Shown piece after piece: positions 2,825 through 8,558 of a DNA stretch of 64,000 nt. This DNA comes from Thermoplasmatota archaeon (GTDB taxonomy: Archaea > Thermoplasmatota > E2 > JACPAO01 > JAHFTW01), in assembly GCA_038046725.1 (NCBI GenBank), contig JBBSVQ010000007.1:18409-82408 (forward strand), written 5' to 3'. The translations under genes and the position numbers were made by a program. Every line of letters starts with the position of its first letter. The first letter of the stretch is position 1. Below the pieces are notes generated by a model. That model had not been told where the DNA came from and searched no databases. It saw only the letters and a program-made list of their open reading frames with translations.

Positions 2825-4096
2825 GTGGCAGCCAAGAAGGCCGTGACCGAATCCATGACGGAGGGCGCAGCCTTCGAGCAGCCCGAGGTCAACATCGGCC
2901 TCATCGGCCACGTCGACCACGGCAAGACGACGCTCACCAAGGCGCTGTCCGGCACGTGGACCGACACGCACTCCGAGGAAGTCAAGCGCGGCATCAGCAT
3001 CAAGCTGGGCTACGCCGACACCACGTTCTACAAGGGCAAGGACAAGGACGGCGCCGACTTCTACTCCACGAAGCCCGACGACGTCCGCCTCGCCGGAACG
3101 CCCGCCAAGTTGCGCCGCGTCTCCTTCGTCGACGCCCCCGGCCACGAGACCCTCATGGCCACGATGCTGTCCGGAGCCGCCCTCATGGACGGCGCACTCC
3201 TGCTCGTCGCCGCCAACGAGAAGTGCCCGCAGCCACAGACGCGCGAGCACCTGATGGCCCTGCAACTCGCCGGCGTCAAGACCATCGTCATCGTCCAGAA
3301 CAAGATCGACCTCGTCGACGAGAAGCGCGCCCTGCAAAACTACGAGGAAATCAAGGCCTTCGTCAAGGGCACGGTCGCGGCGGGGGCCCCCATCATCCCC
3401 ATTTCGGCGCACCACGACGTCAACATCTCGGCCCTCATCGAGGCCATCGAGAAGACGATTCCCACGCCGACGCACGACCCCAAGGCGGACCCCCTCCTGC
3501 TCGTTGCGCGTTCCTTCGACATCAACAAGCCCGGCACGCGCCCCGAGAAACTCAAGGGCGGCGTCCTGGGCGGCTCCATCATGCGCGGCGCCGTGCGCGT
3601 CGGCGACGACATCGAAATCATGCCCGGCCTGCGCGTCGAGCAGGGCGACAAGGCCACCTACGTGCCGCTGCGCACCAAGGTCGTGAGCCTCATGGTCGGG
3701 ACGCAAGCCGTCGAATCAGCCGGCCCCGGCGGCCTGCTGGCCATCGGCACCGAGCTCGACCCGTCCGTCACCAAGGCCGACAACCTCGTCGGCCGCGTGC
3801 TCGGCCACCCGGGCAAGCTGCCCAAGACCGTCGACCGCATCACGATGCAGGTCCACCTTTTGGAGCGCGTCGTCGGCGCCGAGGACGAGTCGGCCGTCGA
3901 GCCCATCAAGATCAAGGAGCCGCTCATGCTCAACGCGGGAACGGCCACGACTGTCGGCATGGTCCTGAAGTCCGCCAACGACGTCGTCGATGCCGTGCTC
4001 AAGCTGCCGGTGCCCGTCGTGCCCAACCAGCGCATCGCCGTGTCGCGCCGCGTTGGCGGCCGCTGGCGCCTCATCGGCTACGGGATCCTCAAGTGA
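2825..4096 (+). CDS. eif2g: Translation initiation factor aIF2 gamma subunit
   Basis: GHVDHGKTTL G1 motif, DAPGHE, NKIDL, zinc-knuckle-less EF-Tu-like domains II/III. GTG start at 2825, alternative ATG at 2855. Confidence 0.95.
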   Translation: MAAKKAVTESMTEGAAFEQPEVNIGLIGHVDHGKTTLTKALSGTWTDTHSEEVKRGISIKLGYADTTFYKGKDKDGADFYSTKPDDVRLAGTPAKLRRVSFVDAPGHETLMATMLSGAALMDGALLLVAANEKCPQPQTREHLMALQLAGVKTIVIVQNKIDLVDEKRALQNYEEIKAFVKGTVAAGAPIIPISAHHDVNISALIEAIEKTIPTPTHDPKADPLLLVARSFDINKPGTRPEKLKGGVLGGSIMRGAVRVGDDIEIMPGLRVEQGDKATYVPLRTKVVSLMVGTQAVESAGPGGLLAIGTELDPSVTKADNLVGRVLGHPGKLPKTVDRITMQVHLLERVVGAEDESAVEPIKIKEPLMLNAGTATTVGMVLKSANDVVDAVLKLPVPVVPNQRIAVSRRVGGRWRLIGYGILK

Positions 4097-4491
4097 CGCG
4101 CGCCGTCGTCTTCGACACCAACGCGCTCCTGCTGCCGTTCGCCAATGGAACCAAGCTCGAGGATGAGATCCTGACGCTTCTCGGCGCCACCGAGTGGCTC
4201 GTACCATCGAGCGTGATGGTCGAACTCAAGACGCTGGCGCACAAGGGCGAGGGTGCAACGATGCGGCACGCCAAGATGGCCGTCAAGTACGCCGAACGCT
4301 GCAAGGTCGTCACGACGAAGCTCGCCGGCGACGACGGTCTGCTTGACGTTGCCCGCAGCCACAAGGCAGCCGTCGTGACCAACGACAAGACGCTGCAAGA
4401 GGAATGCGTGCGCTCCGGCCTCACGGTCATCGTGGCGCGCGAGAACGGCCGCCGGCTCGCCATCAAGGGCGCGGCTGCTGGTCCGTTCTAG
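4093..4491 (+). CDS. PIN-domain protein (Fcf1/COG1412-like) coupled to aIF2-gamma
   Basis: GTG at 4093 overlaps the aIF2-gamma TGA (GTGA). VVFDTNALL...VTNDKTLQEE matches PIN acidic motifs. It is the C-terminal part of track ORF 2956-4491. Confidence 0.8.
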   Translation: MTRAVVFDTNALLLPFANGTKLEDEILTLLGATEWLVPSSVMVELKTLAHKGEGATMRHAKMAVKYAERCKVVTTKLAGDDGLLDVARSHKAAVVTNDKTLQEECVRSGLTVIVARENGRRLAIKGAAAGPF

Positions 4492-4511
4492 GTTTCGCGC
4501 AGCTCACTCCG

Positions 4512-4586
4512 CCCAAACAGGGATTCCGGTGATCTCGGTGATGCTAGCTTCGGGATCACCGCGCATCACCGGAATCCCTGTTTGGG
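4512..4586. repeat. Perfect 22-bp inverted repeat (long hairpin) between convergent genes
   Basis: cccaaacagggattccggtgat (4512-4533) is the exact reverse complement of atcaccggaatccctgtttggg (4565-4586). A nested ggtgatc/gatcacc pair lies inside the spacer. Confidence 0.55.
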
Positions 4587-4591
4587 AGTCG

Positions 4592-4900
4592 TCAGCGCAG
4601 TTGGCGGCGAGGCAGCGGCATGGGCTGCGGGCCGCGCCCGCGCAGGCGCTTGGCCGCCGAGCGGCGCAACTGCGAATCGACGAGCAGGGGCAGCACCGTC
4701 AGCACGGCGAAGATGCTGATGGCGGACACGACGGTGCCTTGGAAGCGGTACCACAGCCCGAAGCCGATGGCGAGGACCACGATGAGGATGGCTGTGCGCG
4801 CCTCGCTGCGAGCGGACTCAAGGAGGATCTCGGAAGCCACCGCGGGGTCGAGTTCGGATTCCCCGTACCGGAAGACGCCGGTGACGAGGGACTTGGCCAC
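4592..4900 (-). CDS. Hypothetical small membrane protein (2 predicted TM helices)
   Basis: 102-aa ORF with two hydrophobic stretches (ILIVVLAIGFGLW, VVSAISIFAVLTVLPLLV). No recognisable family. Confidence 0.35.
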   Translation of the reverse strand: MAKSLVTGVFRYGESELDPAVASEILLESARSEARTAILIVVLAIGFGLWYRFQGTVVSAISIFAVLTVLPLLVDSQLRRSAAKRLRGRGPQPMPLPRRQLR

Positions 4901-5045
4901 GCCTCACCAAGACCGCCGTTGGGGAAAAGGGCTGCGGATGCTGGAAGGCCAATGGATGTGCGACTTCACCGACCCCGTGGTTTCAGTCAAGGCAACCGGC
5001 CGCATGGACAGATTGATGAACTTGGCAAGCGTATACGGCGTATAC

Positions 5046-5276
5046 ATGACAAAGATGGTCCAGTTGTCGGAGGACGCTTACGTCCGCCTGCGTAGCGTGA
5101 AGAAGTCTGACGAGTCGTTTTCTGACACGGTCATCCGCCTCGTGCGCGGCCAGGCGCGGCGCGTTCCGCTGCAGGGCCTCAAGTCGATGCGAACCGACGC
5201 CGAACGGGACGCGCATCTGCGCTGGATCAAGGAAGTCGACGCTCTCGACAAGCCGAAGCGCTTGCCCCGGAAGTGA
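5046..5276 (+). CDS. vapB: VapB-type antitoxin (archaeal DUF217-like)
   Basis: MTKMVQLSEDAYVRLRSVKKSDESFSDTVIRL matches the archaeal VapB antitoxin N-terminal pattern. It ends 4 nt before the PIN toxin gene. It is an internal ATG of track ORF 4620-5276. Confidence 0.7.
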   Translation: MTKMVQLSEDAYVRLRSVKKSDESFSDTVIRLVRGQARRVPLQGLKSMRTDAERDAHLRWIKEVDALDKPKRLPRK

Positions 5277-5280
5277 CGCC

Positions 5281-5661
5281 ATGGCCGTCCTCGATACGAA
5301 CTTCCTCATCGCGCTTGAGCGCCAAGACCCGAAGGCCATCGCCAAAGTCGACGACCTCGTCAAGTCCGCGGCTCACCTGCGGATTCCCGCGGCGGCCTGG
5401 GTCGAGTATCTGTCCGGGGTCTCGTCCAAGCGTCGCCACGCCGCCCAGGCCGACCTGGACGAAACCTGCGTCTTCGAGCCCTTCACCCGGGACCAGGCAA
5501 TCATCGCGGTGCGGCTCCAGTTGGACTTGATGGAACGCGGGGCACGCATGAGCTGGAACGATCTTCAGATTGCGGCGGCCGCCTTGCACTTTGACGAGCA
5601 GGTCGTTTCCCGGGACGCGGCCTTCGACGACGTCACCGGATTGGTCCGTGTGGCCTTCTGA
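5281..5661 (+). CDS. vapC: VapC PIN-domain toxin
   Basis: MAVLDTNFLIAL (first PIN Asp), later conserved acidic positions (WNDLQIAAAA, SRDAAFD). 126 aa, immediately downstream of the antitoxin. Confidence 0.85.
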   Translation: MAVLDTNFLIALERQDPKAIAKVDDLVKSAAHLRIPAAAWVEYLSGVSSKRRHAAQADLDETCVFEPFTRDQAIIAVRLQLDLMERGARMSWNDLQIAAAALHFDEQVVSRDAAFDDVTGLVRVAF

Positions 5662-5693: not shown

Positions 5694-6332
5694 GTGCAGA
5701 CCCGGCTCTGGTTCACCCGCCACGGCGAAGTGGAAGCGCCTTGGGTCGGGACCTTCGTCGGCACCAAGGACGTCGCCTTGAGCGACCTCGGCCGCCACCA
5801 GGCGGAGGCCATCGCCAAGTACCTGGAGGACGCCCCCGTCGACGCCATCGTCAGCAGTCCACGCAAGCGTGCCCTGGACACAATCTCCCCCCTCGCGCGC
5901 GCCAAGGGCCTCAAACTCGACGTCCGCAAGAACCTGGGCGAAATGGACTTCGGCGCCTGGGAGGGACTCGACTGGCCCGCCATCCAGCAACGCGACCCCG
6001 ACGTGGCCCGCGAATGGGCCGCCGACCCCGCCAAGGTCCCCTGCCCGAGTGGCGAGAGCTGCGACCTGTTCTTCGAGCGCTGCAGCGCGGAGATCGGGAA
6101 ACTCGTGGAGGAGTACAAGGGCCGCACCGTCGTGCTGTCCGGCCACGCCGGCGTCAACCGCTGCATCCTGGGAACCGTCCTCAAGCGCCCCTACCTGGAT
6201 TGCTTCGCCTTCGCCCAGGACTACGGCTGCATCAACGCCGCCGGCTGGGGAGCGGATGGCTTCGGGCAGATTGCATTGGTGAACTTCGTTCCGGGGCCGC
6301 GGGCTGCGAAGCAGGGCGATTCGGTGGAGTAG
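5694..6332 (+). CDS. Histidine phosphatase family protein (phosphoglycerate mutase/CobC-like)
   Basis: RHGE catalytic motif near the N-terminus (FTRHGEV), SSPRKRA, LSGHAGV. GTG start. Confidence 0.85.
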   Translation: MQTRLWFTRHGEVEAPWVGTFVGTKDVALSDLGRHQAEAIAKYLEDAPVDAIVSSPRKRALDTISPLARAKGLKLDVRKNLGEMDFGAWEGLDWPAIQQRDPDVAREWAADPAKVPCPSGESCDLFFERCSAEIGKLVEEYKGRTVVLSGHAGVNRCILGTVLKRPYLDCFAFAQDYGCINAAGWGADGFGQIALVNFVPGPRAAKQGDSVE

Positions 6333-6622
6333 TCCGGGCTCCCCCTTCGCGTCCTTGACACGGCCCATCGCTTGTTTGGCAAGCCATTCGAGTTCCTGCA
6401 TGGCACTCACTGTCTTGGTGTTCGTCGCAGAATCGCGCCACAGCCGCACAGCGCGAACCGCAGCCTTGGCTAGGTCTTCCATGCTGTCGGATGTGCGGCG
6501 GTGCAGAACAAGAAATCGAAGGGGTTGGCGGATTCGCTGAAACCTGTTTCCGTGGAGGACTTTCACGTGGTTTCGCGACCTCGCCGCCGTGGACTTGGCT
6601 TTGCAGGTCGTACGCGTCGGCC

Positions 6623-6826
6623 ATGCGGCAGAAAATGGATGTCGTAGAGCTGAAGTCGACCGCGAACGGGTACGAGTTCACGCTGCGAGGCCAGGAGTTC
6701 CGGCTGCGGTTCGAGGATGGGGCCTGGAGGCTGCGCTCGCCGGGCCAACCGGACGTCTCGGCGTTGTTCGAGTCGTTCAATGAGGCGATGAACTTCGCTT
6801 TGGAGAACGGCCCGTTCGATAACTAG
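6623..6826 (+). CDS. Hypothetical small protein
   Basis: 67-aa internal-ATG product of ORF 6491-6826 (MRQKMDVVELKSTANGYEFTLRGQEF...) with balanced composition. No family recognised. Confidence 0.3.
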   Translation: MRQKMDVVELKSTANGYEFTLRGQEFRLRFEDGAWRLRSPGQPDVSALFESFNEAMNFALENGPFDN

Positions 6827-6986
6827 GGTCTCGGGCAACTTCGATTGTCCAATTTCTGCCACAAGGACACGTGGATTGCCAAATCCATCCGCGATAATCC
6901 TTGGTGTCCTCGATGAGCCCAAGCTTCAGAATGCGGCCGCAAGGGCAACCCACTTCGGGGACCAACATGCCTCCGAATATCCCCAA
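6777..6986 (-). CDS. Hypothetical small CPCG...CPCG (zinc-ribbon-like) protein
   Basis: 69-aa ORF starting 29 nt downstream of the DpnI-like stop. Contains GCPCGR and TCPCGR pairs. Its 3-prime end overlaps ORF 6623-6826 by 50 nt, so both may not be real. Confidence 0.25.
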   Translation of the reverse strand: MGIFGGMLVPEVGCPCGRILKLGLIEDTKDYRGWIWQSTCPCGRNWTIEVARDPSYRTGRSPKRSSSPH

Positions 6987-7014
6987 GTCTCTACGTGCTT
7001 GTCCTAGAGGTCAG

Positions 7015-7791
7015 TCAAAGGCGCCTGTATGTGCCGGGCACCACGCGCTCGATGACGCCGCCGGCGACGAGTACCTGAAGTTGTTGGCGAACCTTGGGTC
7101 GAACATTGCGATTCTTGGGGTGGAGGGCCTGGAGCTTGTCCTCGCATCCGTACACATCAGTCAAGGTGAATTGACTGCCTGAACGCAAGGCGAGGTCGTC
7201 CAGACACGAAAGCACGTCCGTCACCCATCCACGTTTCTCGGCTCCAAGGGCTCGCAGAAAGGAAAGCTCGGCGAACTGTTTGCGAACGGCTGCCTTCTTG
7301 GCAAGCCGGCCGTCGGCAACGACTGCAATCTTTCCGACCCGAGGGATTCGGTCCAGGTGGAGGTTCGACCCGATCCAGCCGGCGCGTCGGGCCGTCGCCT
7401 TGAGCGGCTTGCGCTTCGACACGACGCTGAGCGTCATGAAATGGCCCGGGACCCAGACCAGGTCGTTGACGAGCAACGCATCGCGGTCATAGGCCATGAA
7501 ACAATAGTCGGGAGCCCGCCCGGCAAGAATTGCGGCCCGCTTCTTCTCGTATGCAGAATTGCTCACGGTCGAAGCCAGCCGGCCATGCTTGGCCTTGAGT
7601 TGCACGCGGCGAGAGCAGGTCGGACACTGGTAGTCCTCAACCGCCCGGTTGGGCTCGTGGGCTGTGAGGCGGTTGGAAGCGCAAGCGAGGCAGAACAGGT
7701 TCCCCTCGGCCCAGCCTTCAGTGACCTTGCGGGCCCACTGGCTCTTGCTTGTGAAGTGGTCGCCGAGTCGGCCATCCAATGCAAGGTTCAC
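7015..7791 (-). CDS. DpnI-family (Dam-replacing family) methyl-directed restriction endonuclease
   Basis: Colinear with DpnI: KSQWARKVTEGW, CLAC/CPTC cysteine pairs, VQLKAKHG, RKPLKATARRAGWIGSN, C-terminal winged-helix VRQQLQVLVAGGVIERV...YRRL. Confidence 0.85.
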   Translation of the reverse strand: MNLALDGRLGDHFTSKSQWARKVTEGWAEGNLFCLACASNRLTAHEPNRAVEDYQCPTCSRRVQLKAKHGRLASTVSNSAYEKKRAAILAGRAPDYCFMAYDRDALLVNDLVWVPGHFMTLSVVSKRKPLKATARRAGWIGSNLHLDRIPRVGKIAVVADGRLAKKAAVRKQFAELSFLRALGAEKRGWVTDVLSCLDDLALRSGSQFTLTDVYGCEDKLQALHPKNRNVRPKVRQQLQVLVAGGVIERVVPGTYRRL

Positions 7792-8282
7792 TTTGGCCGG
7801 CCCCGCAAGTTGACTTGGAATTGGATGCGCCGCTTGCTGGTCCGTTGTTCGACTTCATTGAGCGTCAGCAGGACGAAGAACGGCGGCTTCCCCTCCGAAG
7901 GCGACAAGACCACGAAGGCGAACTTGTAGCGGTCGCCGAGCCTTGCAGCAAGCTTGTATTCGTTCTCGGTGGCCCCAAAGAAGAAGCCGTACAGGTTGTC
8001 ATCCTCGATGGCCTTCTTCGTGGCCTTGACCTCGACCAACCGGACTCCGTCGATGTGCTCATGCACGTTTTCTGCGGTGAGAGGCGGGGTTGGCACGTCC
8101 GTCTGGATGAGGTCGAAGGCGCGAGCCGAGAACTGCTCCACCCCCAGCAATTCCAGGATGCGTTTTCGCGTGGCCGAATCCGGACGCTGGAACGCAGAAT
8201 CGCGCTTGAGGAGCACGTCGAGGGCCGCGTCCTCCTTGACGTTGTTGAGCTTCGTCTTGCCGTACGAAGCCTCCCGACTCAT
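7788..8282 (-). CDS. PD-(D/E)xK nuclease-fold protein, DUF3883-like
   Basis: 164 aa. AFDLIQTD ... LVEVKATKK (D...ExK) followed by GATENEYKLAARLGDRYKFAFVV, resembling the DUF3883 C-terminal pattern. Its stop overlaps the DpnI-like start by 4 nt. Confidence 0.6.
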   Translation of the reverse strand: MSREASYGKTKLNNVKEDAALDVLLKRDSAFQRPDSATRKRILELLGVEQFSARAFDLIQTDVPTPPLTAENVHEHIDGVRLVEVKATKKAIEDDNLYGFFFGATENEYKLAARLGDRYKFAFVVLSPSEGKPPFFVLLTLNEVEQRTSKRRIQFQVNLRGRPK

Positions 8283-8474
8283 TCAGTCGTTTCAGCCAAG
8301 CGAGATCCATAGATCTGCCGATCACCGGGACTTCGAGGCGCGCGAAGCGCCGCCGAGTCCGGGCCGTAGCCGGCCGAAGGCCGCTGCGGCCCCAGGGGTG
8401 TCGGGGGCGAAGCCCCTGACGCCGACGCCCGCCCGGGGCGCATCAGTGCTCCGGGCGCTAGGAGGCGCCGTAGG

Positions 8475-8558
8475 CGCCGACGCCAGGATTTGAACCTGGA
8501 TGCGCTTGCGCGCGGCGGTTTTCAAGACCGCTACCATACCGGATTAGGTGACGTCGGC
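8475..8558 (-). tRNA. tRNA-Ser (anticodon UGA)
   Basis: Reverse strand reads GCCGACG...GCGGTCTTGAAAACCGC...long variable arm CGCGCGCAAGCGCATC...CCAGGTTCAAATCCTGG CGTCGGC G. Acceptor 7 bp, anticodon loop CU-UGA-AA, class II variable arm. Confidence 0.9.

Follow-up and report, generated by a model that had tools for sequence, protein, structure and literature searches.

Restriction enzymes of the DpnI type cut GATC sites in which the adenine is methylated. In a 64,000-nucleotide (nt) stretch of DNA from a Thermoplasmatota archaeon, referred to here in its entirety as the window, a gene of this family is preceded and overlapped by a gene for a protein of 164 amino acids (aa), which is the subject of this analysis. 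Our preferred reading, to which we assign a probability of roughly 0.55, is that the 164-aa protein is a restriction-type nuclease centred on GATC/Dam methylation that acts as a second effector beside DpnI and is expressed in a manner dependent on the state of GATC sites. Methylation-dependent restriction enzymes are one of the chief defences against phages and plasmids that bring methyltransferases of their own, and little is known of how they are regulated; the predicted nucleases described here form an uncharacterised, cross-domain family with a testable signature, namely a conserved active site, GATC sites in the presumed promoter and a recurrent association with GATC-directed restriction genes.

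The closest described systems include YenY4I and McaZI, modification-dependent restriction enzymes that fuse DUF3427 to a catalytic DUF3883 domain (Lutz et al. 2019, PMC6765204); such fusions adjoin genes for GATC-type C5 (cytosine-5) methyltransferases and Sau3AI/MutH-like genes (PMC6765204). Like YenY4I and McaZI, the 164-aa protein has a predicted PD-(D/E)xK core under the same Pfam model, occurs in defence contexts and would need no cognate methyltransferase; unlike them, it carries neither DUF3427 nor a PUA sensor, stands alone with a helical N-terminus of ~50 aa and a marginal NOV_C score, and is preceded by a GATC-studded presumed promoter of a kind undescribed for those enzymes. The DpnI cassette of Streptococcus pneumoniae (dpnC, encoding R.DpnI, together with dpnD; PDB 4esj, 4kyw) likewise consists of two genes, the second of them small, in a Dam-less host. 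Here, in contrast, the small gene lies upstream of DpnI and overlaps it, its product has a predicted nuclease fold and no DpnD-like match, and the archaeal DpnI carries Q-x-K. Regulated restriction-modification systems of the C-protein and CfrBI kinds offer a third comparison: one clade of the family has a helix-turn-helix gene (HTH_3) with a palindromic operator and other members repeat GATC inside the presumed promoter, but most family loci, unlike those systems, have no cognate methyltransferase. The fold, the domain and the involvement of DUF3883 nucleases in modification-dependent restriction are known already; in the literature searched there was no description of the stand-alone family, of its GATC promoter or of its operon with DpnI.

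Fold, candidate active site and distribution of the family

An earlier reading of the window, made from the letters without database searches (the sequence-only reading), had placed the 164-aa open reading frame (ORF) on the minus strand with its stop codon 4 nt inside the DpnI start region, and had seen in it a plausible nuclease core of the DUF3883/NO-VEIN kind. The coordinates and the GTGA junction were confirmed, and the motifs quoted at the time, AFD57LIQTD, LVE84VK86ATKK and GATENEYKLAARLGDRYKFAFVV, were all found in the translation. The ORF had 276 homologues at E<=1e-3, and an alignment of 39 diverse family members (A1) contained 22 invariant columns (K9, F56, D57, E84, K86, T88, L97, F102-G-A-T105, E108, A112, F121, F123, F135, V137, L138, R152, Q154, Q156 and N158). 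Because of these homologues and invariant columns, the ORF represents a real gene and not a chance frame. D57 and E84-V-K86, which correspond to the classical PD-(D/E)xK triad, were invariant in all 39 homologues. The Pfam model NOV_C/DUF3883 (PF13020) matched residues 79-129 at 22.9 bits, against a gathering cut-off of 22.1, and matched 22 of the 39 homologues at E<=0.01.

An AlphaFold2 model built from A1 (mean predicted local distance difference test score 83.4) comprised two N-terminal helices (residues 4-27 and 36-45) and strands at 58-60, 81-88, 101-103, 119-125 and 135-139, with D57 opening strand 58-60 and the ExK motif within strand 81-88, as in the PD-(D/E)xK core. The order of secondary-structure elements fits alpha-beta-beta-beta-alpha-beta. 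When the model was compared with the PDB by Foldseek, the top matches were nearly all PD-(D/E)xK enzymes, although weak (best E=7e-3, template modelling [TM] scores 0.3-0.4): the SPARDA nuclease domain of DREN type (9qcc, 9jt2), Hjc resolvases (1gef, 2wiw) and HincII, which have the common alpha/beta core and matched at 10-16% identity, together with HinP1I and MGME1. No placement in a non-nuclease fold was obtained. The nuclease core proposed by the sequence-only reading is upheld by the invariant D57/E84-x-K86, the NOV_C score above cut-off and the class of the structural matches, and the 164-aa protein is accordingly predicted, from its sequence and modelled structure, to be a stand-alone endonuclease of the PD-(D/E)xK superfamily, NOV_C/DUF3883-like and with its catalytic residues intact.

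Apart from NOV_C and a chance match to SCAN, the Pfam search at E<=1 returned nothing for the 164-aa protein, and in particular no HTH, Vsr (PF03852), MutH (PF02976), DpnD-like, DUF3427 or PUA-like domain; the same search recognised true Vsr and MutH-like genes in neighbouring loci. Neither NCBIfam nor PADLOC matched the protein in any meaningful way. The lack of a DpnD-like match (a DpnD/PcfM-like family in Pfam) agrees with the earlier supposition that the partner of streptococcal DpnI is a different small protein. The possibility that the 164-aa protein is a duplicate of the DpnI catalytic domain was rejected (hhalign probability 0.2%, E=0.36).

The family was found 201 times in 185,579 species genomes (~0.1% of species) and, among 1.84 billion representatives, as 283 clusters at 50% identity whose members are almost all 140-200 aa long; a metagenome scan with the single protein gave no match and was repeated with the alignment. 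From the ~570 family loci found in total, we read 160, comprising 80 of 201 in species genomes and 80 of 372 in metagenomes. The closest relatives of the window's gene were in Thermoplasmata, and other members were in Actinomycetota, Chloroflexota, Bacteroidota, Acidobacteriota, Verrucomicrobiota, Patescibacteria, Campylobacterota and Bacillota. Even among genomes related to the source genome a family member was present in 4 of 61 only, and in a sample of 401 Patescibacteria genomes the single member was that of locus L074, which is described below. No match was found in viral, phage and plasmid collections (IMG/VR, INPHARED, PLSDB), ten long family members carried no extra fused Pfam domain, and all five RefSeq/GenBank members that were looked up were annotated as 'hypothetical protein'. 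The family is rare, stand-alone, chromosomal and uncharacterised.

Size and genomic company could also suggest a methylation-linked nicking enzyme for repair, analogous to Vsr or MutH and without a role in defence: the protein is Vsr-sized, lies beside C5 methyltransferase genes in several lineages and has the GATC theme in common with MutH. We consider this very improbable given that neither the Vsr nor the MutH model matched, that the distribution is rare and patchy (the 4 of 61 related genomes), that the window's gene occupies a hot spot in which a true Vsr gene is an alternative cargo, and that most hosts have neither a Dam nor a C5 methyltransferase.

GATC sites upstream of the family genes and methylation in their hosts

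The second line of evidence comes from the DNA upstream of the gene. On the coding strand a 20-nt element, GATCGGCAGATCTATGGATC, runs from 8323 to 8304 and places GATC at -41, -33 and -25 from the ATG, where it covers the expected position of the archaeal transcription factor B recognition element (BRE) and TATA box. The element was 100% identical in the window and in three related archaeal loci (L001, L021 and L105), even though the proteins are 58-74% identical and the flanks have diverged; its spacing was constant to the ATG and not to the tRNA gene farther upstream. It is the sole occurrence of GATC-N4-GATC-N4-GATC in the 2.07-Mb assembly, and it was absent from alleles of the same chromosomal site that have no cassette.

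Clustered GATC sites were a feature of most family members without an adjacent HTH gene, which had 2-4 such sites upstream at fixed positions; the Patescibacteria locus L074 had four, at -39, -33, -14 and -4. When the region from -50 to -5 was examined in 13 clusters collapsed at 60% identity, GATC was the top enriched 4-mer (26 observed versus 2.6 expected, z about 13), and two or more sites were present in 10 of the 13 clusters versus 0.32 expected (maximum of 4 in 2000 random draws). The arrangement GATC-N16-18-GATC was found in 101 of 134 non-HTH loci, with the consensus gatcTTGATC ... GATCaT; TT stood 5' of the left GATC in 82-83 of 85 unique sequences, and the commonest distance from the right GATC to the start codon was 12 nt. 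The bacterial form is TTGATC-N16-18-GATCAT with an additional GATC 6 nt upstream, and its geometry is that of the -35 and -10 hexamers of a leaderless transcript. Among 107 matches to TTGATC-N16-18-GATC in 1.09 Mb (both strands), 98 fell within 140 nt upstream of a family gene. RNA structure was rejected as the cause of conservation (folds of seven upstream regions differed, with z-scores from -2.2 to +0.9), as was the idea that GATC clusters are a trait of DpnI genes, since solitary DpnI genes had 0-1 upstream GATC. The clustering of GATC in the presumed promoters of most lineages points to a defence module that may be built around GATC methylation.

A Dam-type (D12, PF02086) methyltransferase was found in none of the 11 hosts with a GATC promoter (the source genome and ten others) and in 3 of 5 hosts of the clade with HTH genes. 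No intact C5 methyltransferase was present in 7 of 10 GATC-promoter hosts, and in two genomes (G067 and G063) none of PF02086, PF00145 and PF01555 scored above cut-off. The source genome has C5 methyltransferases on other contigs; the islet in the window contains no methyltransferase gene, and neither do most family loci. GATC itself is abundant in the Actinomycetota loci, at ~1 per 100 nt. Because two hosts have none of the three methyltransferase classes searched and GATC is nonetheless abundant in their DNA, the protein should not be a restriction enzyme of the classical kind that cuts unmethylated GATC, with the reservation that the absence is provisional in incomplete metagenome-assembled genomes (MAGs). 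A classical type II enzyme for unmethylated GATC or some other site, with its methyltransferase encoded elsewhere, would be in keeping with the C5 methyltransferases on other contigs of the source genome, with the adjacent C5 methyltransferases of several independent lineages and with a C-protein-like gene upstream in 27 of 80 genome loci. It is nevertheless highly unlikely in view of the majority of loci without a methyltransferase, the two hosts without any of the three classes, the density of GATC in Actinomycetota host DNA and the fact that the Bacteroidota methyltransferase is already paired with a separate Sau3AI/MutH-like enzyme.

In the mechanism that we propose, the 164-aa protein would serve a host without Dam methylation as a second, independent restriction or abortive-infection nuclease, and its target would be DNA with foreign GATC methylation. 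Its expression, and in the window that of DpnI as well, would be set by the methylation or occupancy of the GATC sites in its own promoter, read out either through methylation in the manner of CfrBI or through binding by the nuclease itself. Nuclease activity, defence role, specificity for GATC or its methylated form and regulatory mechanism are all features that we infer. If the promoter does read GATC methylation, it would be a simple device by which cells naturally detect foreign Dam activity, and defence genes of both bacteria and archaea would be seen to follow a new regulatory logic, and the enzyme could become a new methylation-state-specific tool alongside DpnI. A bolder version, which we put forward tentatively, makes the whole family an epigenetic tripwire against Dam-encoding invaders in hosts without GATC methylation: -35 and -10 elements (in archaea BRE/TATA) built from GATC would sense foreign Dam and switch on the nuclease, here together with DpnI, with destruction of the methylated DNA or of the infected cell.

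The same upstream sites could instead govern a non-specific toxic DNase, such that the promoter alone reads GATC methylation and an invader encoding Dam triggers abortive infection. This would fit the placement of GATC within hexamers that resemble -35 and -10 elements, are spaced by 16-18 nt and lie ~12 nt upstream of the start codon as in a leaderless transcript, the archaeal sites at -41, -33 and -25 where BRE/TATA is expected, the hosts without Dam and the placement of the other clade under a controller-like HTH protein and a palindromic operator, as toxic genes are; CfrBI provides a precedent for a methylation-controlled promoter (bioRxiv 10.64898/2025.12.04.692298). It would leave unexplained, however, why the neighbours are so often GATC-specific instead of being any defence gene, and the effect of methylation on the promoter is a postulate, with the sigma-70 scan falling below threshold. 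We therefore regard a non-specific DNase as unlikely.

Neighbouring restriction genes and linkage to DpnI

In 27 of 80 genome loci, in Bacteroidota and Acidobacteriota, a controller-like HTH_3 gene abutted or overlapped the start of the family gene. In this clade (L063-L100) a C-box-like palindrome, GATACATATTGT-N16-ACAATATGTAT, lay 5' of the operon of HTH and nuclease genes, and TTGATC formed the centre of the palindrome in about two thirds of cases. In 16 of 80 genome loci, spread over several independent lineages, a C5 DNA methyltransferase gene was located within 3.5 kb, and 10 of 80 had a nearby gene for a MutH/Sau3AI-like type II enzyme (PADLOC REase_II at 4.6e-102); in 10 loci the pair of HTH and nuclease genes was inserted between the Sau3AI/MutH-like gene and its C5 methyltransferase gene. 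An HNH_2 endonuclease gene was nearby in 17 of 80 genome and 25 of 80 metagenome loci, mostly in Actinomycetota and often just upstream on the same strand. In Actinomycetota (L022-L051 and many of the metagenome loci), the gene for an unannotated protein of ~170 aa lies convergently just downstream, in 17 of 80 genome and 21 of 80 metagenome loci; it often accompanies an HNH_2 endonuclease gene, and the protein had no Pfam or PADLOC match.

These arrangements bear on whether the 164-aa protein might be a GATC-binding controller, catalytically active or inactive, that regulates transcription in the manner of a C protein. Its gene does lie upstream of and overlapping a restriction gene, as C genes do, and in the bacterial element the two outer half-sites, separated by about two helical turns, make up the dyad WTGATC-N17-GATCAW. 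What speaks for catalysis instead is the invariant D...ExK triad, together with E108; in addition, the protein has no HTH or other DNA-binding Pfam domain, the HNH_2 gene of Actinomycetota is upstream or convergent, the family gene of Bacteroidota is itself preceded by an HTH controller, and most loci have no adjacent nuclease to control. A controller of this kind is distinctly improbable.

The larger gene of the window is, by its sequence, an unambiguous member of the DpnI family. Its product aligned with positions 1-181 of the 183 in the PF06044 profile (2e-50) and also matched PF17726 (DpnI_C) at 2.5e-19 and the PADLOC model mREase_II ('type II methyl-directed restriction enzyme') at 1e-62, and the Cys4 site (C34, C37, C56, C59) and D53/K66 were invariant. 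All archaeal DpnI homologues examined, including solitary ones (L012-L017), had Q-x-K in place of E-x-K at residues 64-66, E-x-K being present in the S. pneumoniae-type and Patescibacteria enzymes. That a DpnI weakened by Q-x-K needs a helper protein was rejected, given that the solitary archaeal genes also encode Q-x-K.

The 164-aa gene is the promoter-proximal member of an operon with DpnI. The two share 4 nt, the TGA of the smaller ORF (7790-7788) overlapping the GTG start of the DpnI ORF (7791-7789) as GTGA, and translational coupling at this junction is probable. Overlap of the genes was kept in all four archaeal loci, which supports the co-expression that the sequence-only reading had expected. 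Besides the window, the pairing was kept in three related Thermoplasmata loci (L001, L105 and L021; Table 1). It was also found in L074, a locus of Candidatus Moraniibacteriota, in which the nuclease is 40% and DpnI 38% identical to their counterparts in the window, the genes are separated by a 96-nt spacer and the pair is part of a defence island that also encodes DUF3800 and an OLD-family ATPase. In the family tree L074 belongs to a clade of Patescibacteria, Omnitrophota and Bdellovibrio that is divided from the archaeal clade by the deepest split, which has full support, and a single clade of DpnI-linked members was rejected by the approximately unbiased test (p=3.7e-8; this grouping was defined once an initial tree was known). 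On this phylogeny, DpnI became linked to the family on a second, independent occasion in a Patescibacteria genome.

Linkage is thus non-random, yet it is also facultative. DpnI accompanied 4 of the 160 sampled loci: L021 and L074 among the species genomes, where 78 of 80 loci lacked it, L105 among the metagenomes, where 79 of 80 lacked it, and in addition L001. About 97% of the sampled loci were without DpnI. Conversely, six other Thermoplasmata genomes have DpnI without the small nuclease gene, and the two loci whose family proteins are the closest relatives of the L074 copy (L092 and L096, 75% identical) had no DpnI on their short downstream flanks.

An accessory to DpnI, acting in a complex or sequentially, for example on the second strand or on hemi-methylated GATC, would be one way to account for genes that overlap in four archaeal loci and for a second, independent adjacency in L074, particularly as the DpnI monomer nicks first and cuts hemi-methylated sites inefficiently (PMC3424567). 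DpnI is, however, a self-sufficient monomer that is active alone in vitro (PMC3424567), and the ~97% of loci without it, including the short flanks of L092 and L096, the six archaeal DpnI genes without such a neighbour and the 96-nt gap in L074 make an accessory role rather doubtful. The suggestion that the protein is a dedicated partner of DpnI, or its specificity or regulatory subunit, did not hold up on the same grounds. Since ~97% of loci are without DpnI and DpnI works alone elsewhere, the 164-aa protein is less likely to be a subunit of DpnI than an effector in its own right; of the options that the earlier reading had listed, a second effector fits best, and the pairing, whose absence from all other genomes would have refuted that reading, recurs in the three archaeal loci and L074. 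The GATC-studded promoter and the tRNA-linked hot spot are additions to what it had claimed.

Several points weigh against our preferred reading. The NOV_C match is marginal and partial (profile positions 41-84 of 91), the Foldseek matches are weak, and searches of PDB chains by sequence, with the single protein and with a profile, gave nothing significant. Dam absence was scored in incomplete MAGs (the source genome is 86% complete), with one Pfam class and, in a few hosts, two more. Three of the 13 clusters had no upstream GATC cluster; a sigma-70 consensus scan of two bacterial loci did not call the GATC element a promoter, so that its reading as one comes from geometry; and TTGATC/GATCAT could be a promoter kept by descent, in which GATC is incidental. 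No neighbour of the kinds looked for was present in 66 of 161 loci, many of them on short contigs, and the two DpnI linkages could reflect the clustering of defence genes in islands. GATC specificity, finally, is deduced from promoter motif and neighbours.

The tRNA-Ser(UGA) hot spot and local features

The operon lies in a variable interval between a tRNA-Ser(UGA) gene and a histidine-phosphatase gene (Table 1), in which the guanine-plus-cytosine (GC) content is 0.58-0.63 versus 0.65-0.70 in the flanks. The same tRNA gene was found 5' of the cassette in L001 and L021 and 5' of other cargos in sister species of the genus, and orthologues of the histidine phosphatase were 57-65% identical in six related genomes. 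Every cargo in the hot-spot alleles of the sister species consisted of restriction genes. The interval is a clean case of a restriction-gene hot spot in Thermoplasmata, and DpnI and the nuclease would form a cassette moving in it, in which the nuclease is not a required subunit of DpnI. A search for att-like repeats around the islet found no repeat of the tRNA 3' end, and integration of the islet by such repeats was therefore rejected.

Table 1. Coordinates of features in the window (first nine rows), alleles of the hot spot in sister species (next four rows) and related archaeal loci with the nuclease and DpnI pair (last three rows; percentages are identities to the window's proteins).
Feature	Position	Strand	Description
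164-aa nuclease-like gene	7788..8282	-	ATG start, TGA stop; stand-alone NOV_C/DUF3883-like PD-(D/E)xK
Candidate catalytic codons	D57 8114-8112; E84 8033-8031; K86 8027-8025	-	
DpnI-family type IIM endonuclease gene	7015..7791	-	258 aa; predicted G-m6A-TC-dependent (m6A, N6-methyladenine); catalytic domain and C-terminal winged helix
GTGA overlap	7788..7791	-	Stop of 164-aa gene and start of DpnI; operon junction
Triple-GATC element GATCGGCAGATCTATGGATC	8304..8323	-	Presumed promoter/operator of the operon
tRNA-Ser(UGA)	8473..8558	-	Called by ARAGORN; upstream islet boundary
Variable lower-GC interval	6333..8472	.	Restriction-gene hot spot between histidine-phosphatase gene and tRNA-Ser
69-aa CPCG...CPCG zinc-ribbon-like ORF	6777..6986	-	28 nt 3' of DpnI
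Histidine-phosphatase (His_Phos_1) gene	5694..6332	+	Pfam annotation of L001 orthologue; downstream hot-spot boundary
Allele in G006	L103:4924-5011		Interval of 86 nt, no cargo
Allele in G002	L101:3832-4974	-	380-aa DpnI_C winged-helix / SRA-like / HNH_2 protein
Allele in G005	L102:2220-4103		GmrSD type IV enzyme
Allele in G008	L104:800-3235		C5 methyltransferase, Vsr and MutH-like enzyme
Pair in L001			Small nuclease 74%, DpnI 58%; 17-nt overlap
Pair in L105			Small nuclease 64%, DpnI 57%; same GTGA junction
Pair in G007 (= L021)			Small nuclease 58%, DpnI 54%; overlap up to 29 nt from first listed start

The 380-aa protein encoded in the G002 allele has an N-terminal DpnI_C domain (PF17726 at 7e-18; 4esj at 3e-5), a stretch similar to the SRA region of ScoMcrA and a C-terminal HNH_2 domain, and may combine a reader of methyl-GATC with a nuclease of another kind.

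Downstream of DpnI, the 69-aa zinc-ribbon-like ORF may be a third gene of the operon. It had no Pfam match and was not found in L001 or L105; an ORF 58% identical over 59 aa occupies the same position in L021/G007. A convergent 111-aa ORF (6491-6826, plus strand) is kept at 40% in L001. In L074 a 71-aa Cys-rich ORF likewise follows DpnI; it is unrelated to the 69-aa ORF of the window, and homology between the two was rejected. L001 has, at 6242-6961, a gene for a class-I S-adenosylmethionine-dependent methyltransferase (Methyltransf_23/25) that is convergent with and overlaps DpnI; it is absent from the window, and its product falls outside the recognised families of DNA methyltransferases.

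A GC-rich hairpin, GGGGCTTCGCCCC, lies at 8395-8420 on the minus strand between tRNA-Ser and the GATC element and is also present in L001. On the other side of the hot spot, PIN-domain and VapB-like toxin-antitoxin genes flank the region at 4089-5661, as judged by synteny with the annotated L001.

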